From a virus (taxonomy: Duplodnaviria > Heunggongvirae > Uroviricota > Caudoviricetes), in the IMG/VR virus record IMGVR_UViG_2541047909_000003: a DNA stretch of 34,617 nt; one strand, written 5' to 3'. The notes beneath the pieces are model-generated. The model saw nothing but the letters and a program-made list of their open reading frames with translations, did no database searches and was not told where the DNA came from. Position numbers and translations under genes: made by a program. Every line of letters starts with the position of its first letter. Positions within the stretch are counted from its first letter, which is position 1. Below are positions 12,442 through 30,255 of the stretch, piece by piece.

Positions 12442-12855
12442 TCACGCGGAACATGAATATGGCTTGAAGGCGTTGGCCGCCACCTCCACAGTCGGGGCCA
12501 GAATCGTGTAACCCGCCGCCTGCCGCCAGTTCAGTAACAGTGCAGTCATCATGATCCCCGCGGCCAGCGTGGACTTCGAGTTTTTCTTGGGGATAAGGAT
12601 AAAAACTTCCTTGATATGGCGTACACCGGTCTGCGCATCGTAGGAGCCAAACAGGGCCGCCACCAGGTCAAACACCCACGGTGCACAGGACTCCCCGAAC
12701 GTAGGGCTACCAGGTGCATCCACAATCCGCAGTTGTTTAAAAATCGCCAGGGCATGTGCGGCCTCGTCCGGATAAATCGGATCCGGAATAATCGACAGCC
12801 CCTTTTTCAGGCGCTCTGCCCAGTCCGGGCAGGCTGTGCTCCATACAGGTATCAT
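12442..12855 (-). pseudogene. terminase large subunit, N-terminal fragment only
   Basis: 137 aa containing ILIPKKNSKSTLAAGIMMTALLL (Walker-A-like TerL N-terminal region); ORF terminates far short of a full TerL (about 450-650 aa). Confidence 0.65.
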
Positions 12856-13415
12856 CCGTTGCCCTCATTATCGTTATTCACCACCAGTCGGGGTGGCGGT
12901 GGCACCGCAAAACGGTTAGCCGCTTTTTTCGCGGCATCATCTTTTGCCGATTTTTTCCCGGTATCCCCTTTTTTATGGTGCGTGAACTGCGCCAGACGCC
13001 AGGCCGCATCCAGTGCCAGTTTCGGATCAATGCAGAGGTTTTCCACCAGGATCCGCCCCATGGCTTTCACCGGATCGGGAAGACCATCCTCCATATATTC
13101 AATACCAGGAGACATCACCGCGGACGGTGGCATCTCCAGATTGTTTTCGTCCGGCTGTGGTATTGCAGCCGCCTCACGGCGACGGGGTTTATCCTCCTGC
13201 TCTGATTTTTTCTGCCGGTAAACAGGAACCTCATCCACCTCCACCGTCTCGCATTGTTTACGGGCTATAAACGCAAGCACCTCAGGATCTTTTGCCAGCT
13301 GCGAGCCTTTAACCCTGGCGGTCTTCGCCGAATAACCGGCGGCAATGGCTGACGCTGTTTTGTTTTTCCCGGACATGAGCGCCAGCGCAAATTTTCGTTT
13401 TTGCGTTGTCAGCAC
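12852..13415 (-). CDS. terminase small subunit
   Basis: 187 aa; N-terminal HTH-like segment, basic/acidic C-terminus; directly upstream of TerL fragment and downstream of cos/HNH. Confidence 0.7.
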   Translation of the reverse strand: MLTTQKRKFALALMSGKNKTASAIAAGYSAKTARVKGSQLAKDPEVLAFIARKQCETVEVDEVPVYRQKKSEQEDKPRRREAAAIPQPDENNLEMPPSAVMSPGIEYMEDGLPDPVKAMGRILVENLCIDPKLALDAAWRLAQFTHHKKGDTGKKSAKDDAAKKAANRFAVPPPPRLVVNNDNEGNG

Positions 13416-13705: not shown

Positions 13706-14071
13706 TTACAGTCCGATGATGTCGTCCTCTCTGCCACTACCTCCGGACACCTCCGGCAGCGTCGGGTCCGGCATATCACTCGCCGCTTCACGAGCAGACT
13801 TTTGTCGATGGCATTCGGTACAGAGCGTCCAGAGATTCGTCTCCTCATTACCACCACCGAACTGAAGTGCAATTCGGTGATCGAGTTCACTGTCACAGAG
13901 GTCAACCACACGACCACAGAGACGGCACTGCCCGGCGTCCCTGAGCCAGATATGACGCTTGAGGGAAACACGTGCACTGCCACTGACACGACGCTGTTCA
14001 CCCTTCAGAATATTCACCCGTCGGGTATTCAGTGTTTTGATTCTGCTCTGGAGTGTACGAAGCTCAGCCAT
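13706..14071 (-). CDS. HNH endonuclease (packaging-associated)
   Basis: 121 aa; CRLCGR...DHRIALQFGG..N...LCTECH HNH motif; immediately upstream of cos/TerS as in HK97-like phages. Confidence 0.85.
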   Translation of the reverse strand: MAELRTLQSRIKTLNTRRVNILKGEQRRVSGSARVSLKRHIWLRDAGQCRLCGRVVDLCDSELDHRIALQFGGGNEETNLWTLCTECHRQKSAREAASDMPDPTLPEVSGGSGREDDIIGL

Positions 14072-14112: not shown

Positions 14113-14313
14113 ATGTCATCGAAAAACCGTACCCGCAGAACCACAACCCGCAATATCCGTTTCCCCAATCACATGATTGAACAGATCAACATCGCCCTTG
14201 AGCATAAAGGGTCCGGTAACTTTTCAGCGTGGGTTATTGAAGCCTGCAGGAGAAGGCTGGCAACAGATGCAACGCATCTGCGCCCGGCCAGCATGACAAA
14301 TAACGAGAAATGA
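14113..14313 (+). CDS. small ribbon-helix-helix-like protein (YlcI/DUF3950-like)
   Basis: About 66 aa from MSSKNRTRRTTTRNIRFPNHMIEQINIALEHKGSGNFSAWVIEACRRRL; divergent from HNH gene. Confidence 0.55.
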   Translation: MSSKNRTRRTTTRNIRFPNHMIEQINIALEHKGSGNFSAWVIEACRRRLATDATHLRPASMTNNEK

Positions 14314-14444: not shown

Positions 14445-14786
14445 TCAGTGTGCAGAAGGACTAAAGATAAACGTTTTCTTCACGCCTTTACACGGCCTGT
14501 CCTTCTCAAATCGCCATTTTGCCATCGCCTTTACAACCTGCTCATCAAACAGATGGTGCGGCTCTGAACGAATAAACTCAATTCGGGTGACAGTACCATC
14601 AGCACCAATATCAAACCTCACATCAACCCGTCCCTTTATATAATTTGCCGCTGCATAGGCCGGATATTGTGGTAATGCCTTAACCAACTGTCGGGGCATA
14701 TCTGTTTTATGTTGCGTACAGCCCATAACCAGAGAAGACAACAAAATAATTAACGGAAGATTTCTTTTCATTTTCATTCCCCGCAC
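14445..14786 (-). CDS. lipoprotein consisting of a TonB C-terminal domain (moron)
   Basis: 113 aa; signal peptide with LVMGC lipobox-like site; PQYPAYAAANYIKGRVDVRFDIGADGTVTRIEFIRSEPHHLFDEQVVKAMAKWRF aligns with E. coli TonB residues about 160-230 as recalled. Confidence 0.8.
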   Translation of the reverse strand: MRGMKMKRNLPLIILLSSLVMGCTQHKTDMPRQLVKALPQYPAYAAANYIKGRVDVRFDIGADGTVTRIEFIRSEPHHLFDEQVVKAMAKWRFEKDRPCKGVKKTFIFSPSAH

Positions 14787-15109
14787 AGATAAGAATAAGT
14801 CTTATTCTAACAATGCCGCCCTGTCGGTCATCAATCCTCTGCTTAATGGCAACGACAATTATCCGACTTAAATCACAAATCAGACACATGACATAACAGG
14901 GCTTGCGAGGTAACACATCGTCCTGTTTCTTCCACCATCGCACCGGACTGGCGACTATGAGGGGACAACGCCGCGCTCCGTTAACGCGGTAAACCCCGGT
15001 GTGTATCGTTTTTGATTATCCCCGCACACTCGCGCAGAGGAGTCTCCCTGTCGGGCTGCGGTCTCTGTTAATGAGGGAATACAGCGACGATACGGCGCAT
15101 CAGCAAAAC

Positions 15110-15577
15110 TTAGTTCAGGCACTGAGTGCGGATATAGTCCTGTGCCCCTTCCAGCTGCTTCTGCATTGTCATCAACCGTTCTCTGAGGATGAAATAATCC
15201 CGTTCAGCGGTGTCTGCCAGTCGGGGGCCGGTTGCATTATCCACGCCGGAGGTGCCGGTGGCTTCACGCACGGTACCGGAGCAGGTGGCGTTGATCCGCA
15301 GGCGCTTACGACCAGCGGCAACATCAGCACGCAGAGTTTCATTTTCAGCTCTCGCATCGGCTAATTCCCTCGAGTATCTGGCATCAAGTTCAGCGACATC
15401 ACGCTGGCGTATCTGCATATCAGTAATTGTCGCGTTCGCCAGTTTCAGCTCACTGACTTTTTTATCGCGCTGCGCTTTGTAGGTGATGGCGTTATCGCGG
15501 TAATGATTCAGCCCCAGACTAAGCACACCACAGGCTACCAGCAGGACAATAATCACCACACACAGAACACGGTTCAT
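15110..15577 (-). CDS. Rz: i-spanin Rz
   Basis: [18 protein letters not shown]...[16 protein letters not shown]...[15 protein letters not shown], near-colinear with lambda Rz; the 183-aa track ORF includes a spurious N-terminal extension. Confidence 0.9.
15172..15357 (-). CDS. Rz1: o-spanin Rz1 (embedded in Rz, +1 frame)
   Basis: Lipoprotein signal (LVVSAC) followed by Pro-rich segment [24 protein letters not shown]. Confidence 0.85.
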
Positions 15578-15676
15578 ATCACCACCAACGGATTGCCCAG
15601 ACCAGAACAGCAATGGCCACAATACGAATGGCAAATGCCATTGCCCGAATAAGTTCAGCACTCATCTTTTTAAAGT

Positions 15677-19990: not shown

Positions 19991-20021
19991 GGAGTTTACT
20001 CACATCTGACAAAATCAATAT

Positions 20022-20048
20022 AAACAGCCCCTCCGGAGAGGGGCTGGA
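20022..20048 (-). terminator. terminator-like hairpin (minus-strand orientation)
   Basis: cagcccctc-cgga-gaggggctg 9-bp stem followed by T/A-rich tract on minus strand. Confidence 0.4.
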
Positions 20049-20411
20049 GAGTGGCGCTATGTGCCATTGCATGGTGCCGGGTGCCTCCCGGTGAATTCAG
20101 TACCAGCACCTGAATCCGCGATTATCCCATATACCTACTCGCTGATTGCCCCTCCGCACAGGGGGATTCACCATGCGATGTAATTTTTAACAAATTCTCC
20201 GGCAGCCAGACAATCATCAAGCTGTGGAATTGTGAGGTATTTAAAAATTTCAACGGGTAACTGATACCCTGCTAATCGCCTGATGCTTTCTTTTTCAGCA
20301 ACGGGAAAGCAACAACCACACACCCGCCACCAAAACACCATCAGACAGCACCGACATTATCCGGCTGCTGAAGTCCACCATCACCACCAGAAACAACAGG
20401 AGTGCAACCAC

Positions 20412-20469: not shown

Positions 20470-20546
20470 TGGACCGCCATCGGGGACTTGAACCCCGCGC
20501 AGCCAGCTTCGAAGGCTGGCGCTCTATCCCGATGAGCTAATGGCGG
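20470..20546 (-). tRNA. tRNA-Arg (anticodon UCG)
   Basis: Full cloverleaf by hand-fold: 7-bp acceptor stem, D-arm, anticodon loop CTTCGAA, T-arm CGGGG-TTCAAGT-CCCCG, encoded CCA. Confidence 0.8.
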
Positions 20547-20553
20547 TATGTGA

Positions 20554-20629
20554 TGGTGGCCCTTGCTGGATTTGAACCAGCGACCTGGCGATTATGAGTC
20601 GCTCGCTCTCACCACTGAGCTAAAGGGCC
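20554..20629 (-). tRNA. tRNA-Ile2 (anticodon CAU, lysidine-type; ileX/ileZ-like)
   Basis: Full cloverleaf; anticodon loop CTCATAA; body nearly identical to E. coli ileX as recalled; encoded CCA. Confidence 0.85.
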
Positions 20630-24998: not shown

Positions 24999-25154
24999 TT
25001 ACTCCTCAGGTTCGTAAGCTGTGAAGACAGCGACCTCCGTCTGGCCGGTTCGGAGTCGTACCTCGCAGAGGTCTTTCCTCGTTACCAGTGCCGTCACTAT
25101 GACGGTTAAACAGATGACGATCAGGGCGATTAACATCGCCTTTTGCTGCTTCAT
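24999..25154 (-). CDS. hok: Hok/Gef-family type I toxin
   Basis: MKQQKAMLIALIVICLTVIVTALVTRKDLCEVRLRTGQTEVAVFTAYEPEE, near-identical to HokD/RelF as recalled. Confidence 0.85.
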   Translation of the reverse strand: MKQQKAMLIALIVICLTVIVTALVTRKDLCEVRLRTGQTEVAVFTAYEPEE

Positions 25155-25330
25155 AGCCTGCTTCCCCTTGCCTTTCGGCACGTAAGAGGCTAACCTACAT
25201 TTGTGAGACATAGATTGGGCCTCAGATTAATGTTAAGCGTCTTGCAGGACGCGAAATGTTAACTGGGGCTTTTCTCTATCTGCCTTTCAGTGTTCATGCC
25301 TGAGACAGATAGCCTCAAGCACCCGCAGCC
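25155..25330. promoter_or_regulatory. hok leader with predicted antisense sok RNA and fold-back elements
   Basis: Leader contains inverted segments (gcttgaggctatctgtctcaggcatg) typical of hok mRNA structure; exact sok ends not determined. Confidence 0.35.
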
Positions 25331-29688: not shown

Positions 29689-30255
29689 TAGCTAACCAAC
29701 GAAGCTAAGGTTGGTAATTAAGGAGTTCTCCACGGATGAGGTGGAGTGCGTGCGCCGGACACGGGTGAGCATCCGGCACAGACAGTTTACTGAAAGGATA
29801 TTTCCCTGAAAGGTCAGACCATAACGCGAAAGCGCACGGCGAGGTAGCTGGTTCATAGATAGCCTGTCGTTAAATTTTCGTCGACCGTGCGCTTCCGGTT
29901 GTGGCAATCCGCGAAATGGCGCGGCGGTGAGTATGGCGGGGTTATTCCTTCCCCGTTGAGGACACCGGGTTGTCAGGTTGACCATACGCTTAAGTGACAA
30001 CCCCGCTGCAACGCCCTCTGTTATCAATTTTCTGGTGACGTTTGGCGGTATCAGTTTTACTCCGTGACTGCTCTGCCGCCCTTTTTAAAGTGAATTTTGT
30101 GATGCGGTGAATGCGGCTGAGCGCACGCGGAACAGTTAAAACCAAAAACAGTGTTATGGGTGGATTCTCTGTATCCGGCGTTAATTGTTAACTGGTTAAC
30201 GTCACCTGGAAGCACCAGGCACCGCATCACAAAATTCATTGTTGAGGACGCGATA

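Follow-up and report, generated by a model that had tools for sequence, protein, structure and literature searches.

The window analyzed here, a stretch of 34,617 nucleotides from a Caudoviricetes virus (IMG/VR record IMGVR_UViG_2541047909_000003), carries on its minus strand a small gene for a predicted lipoprotein that, apart from its signal peptide and a short linker, consists of a TonB C-terminal domain. On sequence criteria, the gene is a member of a separate Enterobacterales family that is shared between temperate phages and bacterial chromosomes, and we propose that its product may compete with host TonB for the TonB boxes of TonB-dependent transporters. An earlier note, made from the DNA letters alone, had singled out the open reading frame (ORF) and suggested a decoy of this kind.

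The gene and its product

The ORF occupies 14445..14786 on the minus strand and would encode 113 aa if begun at the GTG at 14786. It is real as the earlier note had it, but its upstream end was placed about 15 nt too far out: the ATG at 14771, preceded by GGGGAA/AGGAA, is the sole start conserved in the upstream alignment with phage 21 and JLK-2012, and the same 108-aa product is called by RefSeq (WP_000828071.1, "TonB family protein"). The most likely coding sequence (CDS) is 14445-14771 on the minus strand, encoding 108 aa and beginning MKRNL; residue numbers below refer to this form. Its features are as follows.

14445..14771, minus strand: CDS of the 108-aa prolipoprotein (RefSeq WP_000828071.1 type), with a signal peptide and lipobox, a short linker, and a TonB C-terminal domain
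14718..14771, minus strand: signal peptide and lipobox (MKRNLPLIILLSSLVMG followed by C18), from sequence reading
14460..14696, minus strand: TonB C-terminal domain, residues 26 to 104, equivalent to Escherichia coli TonB 153 to 231 in an ungapped phmmer alignment

The N terminus reads as that of a Lol-sorted outer membrane (OM) lipoprotein, with a charged n-region (MKRN), a hydrophobic core (LPLIILLSS), a lipobox (LVMG before C18), and Thr rather than Asp at position +2. Met at the -2 position of the lipobox is slightly atypical relative to the pattern [LVI][ASTVI][GAS]C and is permitted by PROSITE PS51257. Under the E. coli +2 rule, lipoproteins without Asp at +2 are destined for the OM, where we infer that this protein also resides. 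A linker of only 7 residues (TQHKTDM) separates C18 from the domain, which makes up all the rest of the 91-aa mature protein (C18-H108). Thus, the N terminus is a cleavable lipoprotein signal in place of the transmembrane anchor that couples TonB to ExbB/ExbD, and the proline-rich spacer that spans the periplasm is absent.

Profile searches recovered the domain with both the Pfam TonB_C model (PF03544; E value of 9.7e-15, 55.2 bits against a cut-off of 24.6) and TIGR01352 tonB_Cterm (7.6e-15, 55 bits against a cut-off of 27.1), whereas the NCBIfam equivalog models for TonB were matched only at about positions 152 to 240, with 49 to 74 bits against cut-offs of 265 to 448. A phmmer search of PDB aligned residues 26 to 104 with E. 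coli TonB 153 to 231 without a gap (E value of about 1e-15). In the Pfam scan of the protein, TonB_C and TonB_2 were the only matches, and none to the Bor family was seen. The protein also matches PHROG phrog_1267 (5e-42), which is labeled "Rz-like spanin" (lysis category). The domain keeps the YP motif (Y36 and P37), the conserved aromatic residues F53, F75, W86, F88, and F103, and the β3 strand (about residues 94 to 103), which in TonB is the strand that pairs with TonB boxes. The position of TonB Q160 is occupied by Leu (L33) and, in the phage 21 allele, by Tyr. The second cysteine, C94, is polymorphic with Arg among the IMG/VR copies, so that there is no conserved disulfide.

An AlphaFold2 (AF2) model, obtained from an alignment of 12 sequences so shallow that only one of five models was confident, has predicted local distance difference test scores of 89 to 96 over the domain and places helices at residues 38 to 42 and 76 to 84 and strands at 47 to 55, 60 to 70, and 94 to 103. 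It shows the α/β fold with a three-stranded sheet and the β3 edge typical of TonB_C. The best Foldseek match was TonB from the BtuB:TonB complex (2gsk_B; template modeling [TM] score of 0.91, root mean square deviation of 1.3 Å), with 1u07_A and 2grx_C (the FhuA:TonB complex) also among the top matches, and the fit to the intertwined dimers 1ihr and 1qxx was poor (TM scores of 0.28 to 0.45). In the BFVD viral structure library, the model had no match below an E value of 0.28.

Hence, the reading of the earlier note, with a Cys lipobox, a residue-by-residue match to the TonB C-terminal domain, and neither a TonB membrane anchor nor a proline-rich spacer, is borne out by the 108-aa layout, and the hidden Markov model (HMM) search and structure prediction that it proposed both returned the TonB C-terminal fold. 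We regard a stand-alone TonB C-terminal domain behind a lipoprotein signal as confirmed at the level of sequence; with this layout, the protein is predicted to be unable to transduce energy.

Alleles, selection, and prevalence

We identified two E. coli alleles of the gene. Type A, the allele in the window, is also present in JLK-2012, Lys8385Vzw, and several Stx1a phages; type B is 72% identical to it and includes the classical phage 21 gene CPT_21_73, annotated as "TonB C-terminal domain protein." Between type A and the phage 21 allele, the ratio of nonsynonymous to synonymous substitution rates (dN/dS) is 0.115, with a dS of 1.66. All 80 type A copies from IMG/VR viral contigs are full length, and among them 19 codons are polymorphic by synonymous changes only and 7 by changes that alter the amino acid. 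The gene is maintained under purifying selection; because of the low dN/dS and the intactness of all these copies, it is not a decaying tonB fragment.

Counted by DNA coverage (at least 80% of a 701-bp query for type A) and not by intact ORFs, type A occurs in 413 (7.6%) and type B in 1,223 (23%) of 5,426 complete E. coli genomes, the latter including Nissle 1917 and the type strain. In the K-12 prophage DLP12, the equivalent slot is occupied by ybcV/ybcW, which may be why the gene has escaped study. The existence of the domain is known at the level of annotation, as the EDL933 genome already flags a "partial tonB-like membrane protein." Our literature search found no study of the protein or of any natural lipoprotein with a TonB C-terminal domain, in agreement with the earlier note, which was aware of no characterized example.

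As a separate observation, many type B database entries (P0012, P0013, P0016, P0018, P0019, and P0020) have alternative C termini after about residues 90 to 96, consistent with frameshifts that remove the β3 strand. P0012 represents 130 member sequences, compared with 368 for the intact P0008. Decay of cryptic prophages, assembly errors, and a slippery site are candidate causes.

A family of lipoproteins with TonB C-terminal domains

An exhaustive HMMER search of 1.84 billion representative proteins recovered 4,729 TonB_C proteins at E values of ≤1e-3. Among the best matches were single-domain proteins of 107 to 133 aa, nearly all with a lipobox and a few with a plain signal peptide. On this basis, we defined a family, for which there is no curated model, as proteins of about 105 to 135 aa with a single TonB_C domain, a lipobox Cys some 8 to 16 residues ahead of it, and the motifs YPxYA and S(E/x)PxxLFD. 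The first motif has Tyr at the position of TonB R166, and the second stands where TonB has (A/Q)PANMFE. In alignments, the window protein displays every one of these sequence features. Of 13 diverse short members, 11 have a lipobox Cys that aligns with that of the window protein, and a lipobox with a residue other than Asp at +2, together with the short linker, is retained down to 33 to 45% identity.

In a neighbor-joining tree built on about 80 aligned positions, the family forms a clade with 95% bootstrap support, with the enterobacterial TonB C-terminal domains lying outside it. Within the clade, phage and chromosomal members interleave: the member from a Serratia prophage groups with that of the Serratia grimesii chromosome (91%), and chromosomal members from Klebsiella and Raoultella group with those of Klebsiella-type phages (88%). 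A scan of one genome per species, queried with a seven-sequence alignment, revealed 15 loci in Raoultella, Klebsiella, Erwinia, Serratia, Pantoea, and Pseudescherichia. Several of these are in ordinary chromosomal neighborhoods confirmed with Pfam (LacZ/LacI, MinD...DsbB/FadR, and FliD), and copies lie beside core genes in Raoultella, Klebsiella, Serratia, and Pantoea. In contrast, the Serratia montpellierensis copy is prophage-borne, with a lysozyme/Rz-like pair on one side and the small terminase gene on the other.

These sequence comparisons indicate that the gene is a member of a separate, partly chromosomal Enterobacterales family. The description of it as a moron holds as far as its accessory behavior goes, but it is not a one-off moron, given that the family is also found on chromosomes. 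A recent capture of the host tonB gene was considered and is ruled out by the tree and the family signatures.

Apart from the family proper, P0155 and P0142 are lipoproteins with a long linker (about 40 to 60 aa) and a C-terminal domain that is much nearer to genuine TonB (SAQPANIFEREV in P0155). Their sequences suggest that the combination of a lipobox with a TonB C-terminal domain arose more than once.

Position between the lysis and packaging modules

The genes around the CDS that bear on its context are as follows.

15110..15661, minus strand: Rz-type i-spanin ORF (RefSeq start at about 15577) with an embedded Rz1 o-spanin (15172-15357), the end of the lysis cassette, upstream
14113-14313, plus strand: YlcI/YnfO gene, convergent, downstream
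13706-14071, minus strand: HNH endonuclease gene, downstream
12852-13415, minus strand: terminase small subunit gene (terS), downstream

The gene for the TonB-domain lipoprotein is on the late-gene strand, downstream of Rz/Rz1 and upstream of the HNH endonuclease gene, terS, and the terminase large subunit gene (terL), and its start codon is 338 nt from the Rz stop. In every phage or prophage locus with recognizable neighbors, namely, the window, JLK-2012, phage 21, Klebsiella phage ST13-OXA48phi12.4, the Serratia prophage, and the IMG/VR contigs, it likewise follows holin-endolysin-Rz and precedes HNH/terS/terL on the same strand, although the lysis and packaging modules themselves vary between loci. 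The co-traveling unit, which begins just past the Rz stop (window position 15100), takes in the 338-nt leader. An inserted KilA-N gene separates Rz from the TonB-domain gene in JLK-2012, and in phage 21 and Nissle 1917, bor/iss (antisense) is found between Rz and the TonB-domain gene (sense), the two being side by side. The earlier note was therefore right to place the gene between Rz/Rz1 and the packaging genes, whereas its equation of this site with the Bor position does not hold literally.

The window prophage is defective, lacking about 5.5 kb relative to a 99.5%-identical prophage of E. coli NCCP15648. The missing segment (L001 1626-7161; window junction 12461-12465) comprises the major capsid gene together with the bulk of the portal gene and of terL; of the latter, only 137 codons persist, at 12442-12855. 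Despite this, the TonB-domain gene is intact.

The YlcI/YnfO (DUF3950) gene at 14113-14313 (plus strand) is convergent with the TonB-domain gene inside the late operon, like ylcI in K-12 DLP12.

Promoter-like element and Fur boxes

The leader contains two candidate regulatory features.

14804..14831, minus strand: promoter-like site with a -35 element ATGACC, a 16-nt spacer, and an extended -10 element TGtTAGAAT, from the promoter scan and conservation
14788..14806, plus strand: Fur-box-like site GATAAGAATAAGTCTTATT, matching 13 of 19 consensus positions, 16 nt from the start codon

By itself, the promoter scan gave a score that was not above the shuffled expectation. Nevertheless, the window has the extended -10 element TGTTAGAAT at 14804-14812, matched by TGTCAGAAT in phage 21, in surroundings that have otherwise diverged between types A and B, and the distant viral homologs L101 and L109 carry TGTTAGTAT at the same place. 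The earlier note put the noncoding region upstream of the gene at 320 bp; 338 nt separate the Rz stop from the start codon, and they contain the conserved promoter-like element.

In the window, the Fur-like site overlaps both the -10 element and a 17-bp palindrome, AGAATAAGaCTTATTCT. Phage-borne relatives have a near-consensus Fur box 15 to 18 nt before the start codon, directly downstream of the extended -10 element, for example, AGTATTGATAATCATTATC (16/19) and GATAATGTTGATTATCATT (14/19), and chromosomal members have Fur boxes that match at 14 to 17 of the 19 positions. In the two Serratia copies, the box is about 45 nt upstream of the start. When scored as a count of consensus matches, which is not a calibrated matrix, a Fur match of at least 14/19 is present in 14 of 20 family upstream regions but in only 1 of the 189 upstream regions that were drawn from these loci as controls. 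The host tonB gene is iron regulated. From these upstream sequences, the family likewise looks to be iron regulated via Fur, and the window copy, with its weakened box, may have kept the same control.

We detected no intrinsic terminator between Rz and the gene or downstream of it, and the 141 nt downstream fold no better than shuffled sequences (z score of 0.31). As the gene is also co-oriented with the late operon, read-through from the latter is likely. The upstream region had no Rfam match at E values of ≤1.

Two further observations concern the leader. First, a 166-nt noncoding block (14940-15105, minus strand), directly following the Rz stop, shares about 90% identity with phage 21, compared with only 70% for the adjacent CDS. 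It is found in 398 phage records, mostly of lambdoid/Stx (Shiga toxin) phages, many of which are without a TonB-domain gene. Folding did not support a structured RNA (z score of -0.82), nor did Rfam return a match; the block may be a module-junction sequence. Second, a small ORF at 14873-14938 (minus strand; 21 aa from the ATG) shares the start MVEETG(R/S)C(V/I)T with its phage 21 counterpart CPT_21_72 (46 aa; L003 3846-3983), and the two diverge fully after about 10 residues, suggesting that this is probably not a conserved protein.

A proposed competitor for TonB boxes

TonB captures the TonB box of a ligand-loaded transporter as an added strand at its β3 edge, as seen in 2GSK and 2GRX. Because both the fold and the edge strand used for this capture are retained, we propose that the lipoprotein acts as an unenergized competitor for TonB boxes, a reading to which we assign a probability of roughly 0.5 on the basis of sequence, the structural model, and the precedents given below. 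The protein would sit in the OM facing the periplasm, with a complete but unenergized TonB C-terminal domain on a 7-residue tether, and would bind TonB boxes by β-augmentation in competition with host TonB. It would target TonB-dependent transporters and perhaps also group B colicins as they enter. The expected outcome is a reduction in TonB-dependent traffic, that is, in irreversible adsorption of T1/φ80-type phages and in the import of colicins and microcins, at the cost of lowered siderophore and B12 uptake. The gene is probably transcribed by two routes. One starts at its own extended -10 promoter; as a Fur box overlaps this promoter in the wider family, it would be active when iron is limiting and the receptors are derepressed. 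The box of the window copy is only a weakened version. The other route is read-through of the late operon.

Precedents for the individual steps come from both engineered and natural systems. Iron import through TonB-dependent transporters of E. coli is reported to be inhibited by an overproduced periplasmic TonB domain (Howard et al. 2001, J Bacteriol 183:5885), and a TonB-box consensus pentapeptide is reported to have lowered TonB-mediated colicin killing and φ80 infection (Tuckman and Osburne 1992). Soluble TonB fragments bind FhuA with dissociation constants of 20 to 200 nM (Braun 2024), and the TonB variant Q160L makes colicin M and FhuA with mutated TonB boxes active again (Braun 2024). 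Since the latter substitution rescues TonB-box mutants, the Leu at the Q160 position of the window protein is compatible with TonB-box binding and perhaps, by analogy, confers relaxed TonB-box specificity. Further, superinfection exclusion by the phage proteins Llp and Cor, both lipoproteins of the OM inner leaflet, works through binding to FhuA from its periplasmic side, and lipoproteins targeting TonB-dependent transporters are said to be common in coliphages.

More tentatively, and with a likelihood that we would put at somewhat under even, the family as a whole could represent natural, iron-regulated dominant-negative versions of TonB, that is, Fur-controlled decoys tethered to the OM and common to Enterobacterales chromosomes and temperate phages, which provide broad protection across transporters. 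If so, TonB boxes would be occupied precisely when the receptors are derepressed, guarding against TonB-dependent phages, group B colicins, and siderophore-microcins. This would constitute a generic form of superinfection and bacteriocin exclusion, distinct from the receptor-specific Llp/Cor, in about a quarter of complete E. coli genomes.

Several points weigh against competition for TonB boxes and its control by Fur. Two TonB residues that are reported to lie at the receptor interface are altered: R166 is Tyr family-wide, and R158 is Lys or Thr. Dimerization and poor binding to FhuA are reported for the shortest C-terminal fragments of TonB (about 77 to 86 aa), and the mature protein, with 91 aa, is near this boundary. 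The Fur-like site of the window, at 13/19, is borderline against the control upstream regions (P of about 0.04), and that of phage 21 has been lost by a 13-bp deletion, leaving 9 to 11 matches of 19. For the chromosomal members, a TonB blocker that is derepressed along with the Fur regulon looks paradoxical, as iron uptake is then most needed. Finally, the position behind the lysis genes in the orientation of the late operon fits a role in the lytic cycle equally well.

Alternative roles

Such a lytic role, which we consider unlikely, would have the protein made mainly from the Q-antiterminated late transcript and acting around lysis. One possibility, modeled on T5 Llp, is that it could shut off the TonB-dependent receptors of the infected cell and of its debris, thereby sparing progeny or excluding competitors; another is that it could modulate the envelope at lysis. 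The late-strand location after the lysis cassette and ahead of HNH/terS/terL in every recognizable phage context, the failure to detect an intrinsic terminator before or after the gene, and the lysis label of PHROG 1267, which contains the protein, are all consistent with this. However, the lysis/packaging junction is a general landing site for accessory genes (e.g., bor/iss), which makes position weak evidence; the conserved promoter-like element, like the Fur boxes, points to expression that does not depend on the late operon; chromosomal members of the family are without a lysis context; and the defective window prophage still keeps the gene intact. A role in the lytic cycle and competition for TonB boxes are compatible and not mutually exclusive.

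The association of the family with Fur boxes is the reason why a role in iron/TonB physiology is also kept alongside phage and colicin exclusion. Here, the Fur-regulated, OM-tethered domain would aid or tune TonB-dependent uptake, by recruiting periplasmic binding proteins such as FhuD, by holding exposed TonB boxes, or by damping transporter signaling, and phages would have taken it up for its benefit to the fitness of the lysogen. The TonB C-terminal domain is reported to bind FhuD. Strong Fur boxes (14 to 17/19) upstream of chromosomal and phage members, the chromosomal copies in core-gene neighborhoods of Raoultella, Klebsiella, Serratia, and Pantoea, and the interleaving of chromosomal and phage copies in the tree favor such a function. 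We nonetheless view it as improbable, to about the same degree as the lytic one: there are no linked partner genes, the neighborhoods differ in every genus, the E. coli phage alleles have degraded Fur boxes, and an unenergized domain that binds through TonB's own strand is more simply a competitor.

Alternatively, the protein might poison TonB itself, either by forming a C-terminal heterodimer with host TonB or by binding the sites on peptidoglycan, Lpp, or OmpA that TonB uses, and not TonB boxes. This we think quite unlikely, even though the 36 to 42% identity to host TonB C-terminal domains extends over the whole domain and TonB C-terminal fragments crystallize as dimers (1IHR and 1U07). The AF2 model fits TonB in its receptor-bound, monomeric state but not the intertwined dimer, with the proviso that a single-chain prediction cannot show a dimer, and the phenotype would be largely the same as that under TonB-box competition. 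The physiological relevance of TonB C-terminal dimers is disputed.

That the gene is a nonfunctional relic of a captured piece of host tonB, as older annotations ("partial tonB-like" and "TonB fragment") and the frameshifted C termini of the several phage 21-type entries listed above might imply, or that its product is a spanin, as the PHROG 1267 label has it, is barely tenable and is contradicted by selection (dN/dS and the 80 intact copies) and phylogeny (the well-supported clade apart from enterobacterial TonB C-terminal domains), as well as by the protein's own signal peptide and lipobox. A spanin identity is ruled out by the globular TonB_C domain, by a gene that is neither embedded in nor abutting Rz, and by the lack of a C-terminal hydrophobic or transmembrane segment and of the proline-rich character of o-spanins; moreover, a canonical Rz/Rz1 pair is already present 338 nt upstream. 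The phrog_1267 label looks like a misannotation derived from position and the lipoprotein signal.

Comparison with known systems

With E. coli TonB (P02929, about residues 150 to 239), the window protein shares the fold, an ungapped alignment at 36 to 42% identity, the YP motif, the aromatic core, and the β3 edge. It differs in being a lipoprotein that lacks the ExbB/ExbD-coupling transmembrane helix and the proline-rich spacer, with a predicted lipid anchor in the OM instead of one in the inner membrane. It also differs in having Tyr for R166, Leu (Tyr in the phage 21 allele) for Q160, and SEPxHLFD for (A/Q)PANMFE, and it belongs to a separate cluster. The engineered fragments of Howard et al. 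(2001) are reported to be likewise unanchored TonB domains in the periplasm that inhibit transport by FecA and FhuA, and by analogy they would serve as the direct experimental model for the proposed competition. Those fragments are artificial, overproduced, soluble, and derived from host TonB, whereas the prophage protein is natural, diverged, and predicted to be lipid-tethered to the OM, and it has a control of its own that probably responds to iron.

The predicted product of this gene would resemble T5 Llp and the Cor family (φ80, N15, HK022, and T1) in being a small phage lipoprotein of the OM inner leaflet that acts on the periplasmic face of TonB-dependent transporters. Llp and Cor have a small disulfide-bonded fold unrelated to TonB_C, which places the window protein outside Llp/Cor, and they specifically jam the FhuA plug and close the extracellular loops by allostery. 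For a TonB C-terminal domain, the handle would instead be the generic TonB box, so that its action could extend to many transporters. λ Bor/Iss provides a likeness of another kind, as these too are OM lipoproteins encoded by accessory genes between Rz and the packaging genes of lambdoid phages. The Bor/Iss genes are antisense to the late operon, whereas the TonB-domain gene is in the sense orientation, and their co-occurrence in phage 21 and Nissle 1917 indicates that the two are not alternatives for one slot. A search of PADLOC-DB 2.0 gave no defense-system match, the one match, to a cyclase model (E value of 0.039), being at chance level.

A 2024 review of superinfection exclusion lists Cor alone for FhuA. 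The known category is thus that of phage OM lipoproteins aimed at TonB-dependent transporters, and what would be new, by analogy with these, is a generic TonB-box handle. If the proposed competition is correct, the family would form a second, mechanistically different class of such lipoproteins and offer a natural tool for studies of TonB-box capture. TonB-dependent transporters are used for entry by many phages, colicins, and microcins and by siderophore-conjugated antibiotics (cefiderocol type); hence, the phage host range, bacteriocin sensitivity, and possibly the uptake of "Trojan horse" drugs would be altered in a large fraction of E. coli strains.

Other features of the window

Elsewhere in the window, Rfam matches at the gathering level include the small RNA STnc100 (20016-20206, minus strand), the sok antitoxin RNA (25149-25324, minus strand), which implies a hok/sok module, and DicF (30030-30081, plus strand). 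Two tRNA genes are located downstream of Q, at 20473-20546 and 20557-20629 (minus strand).

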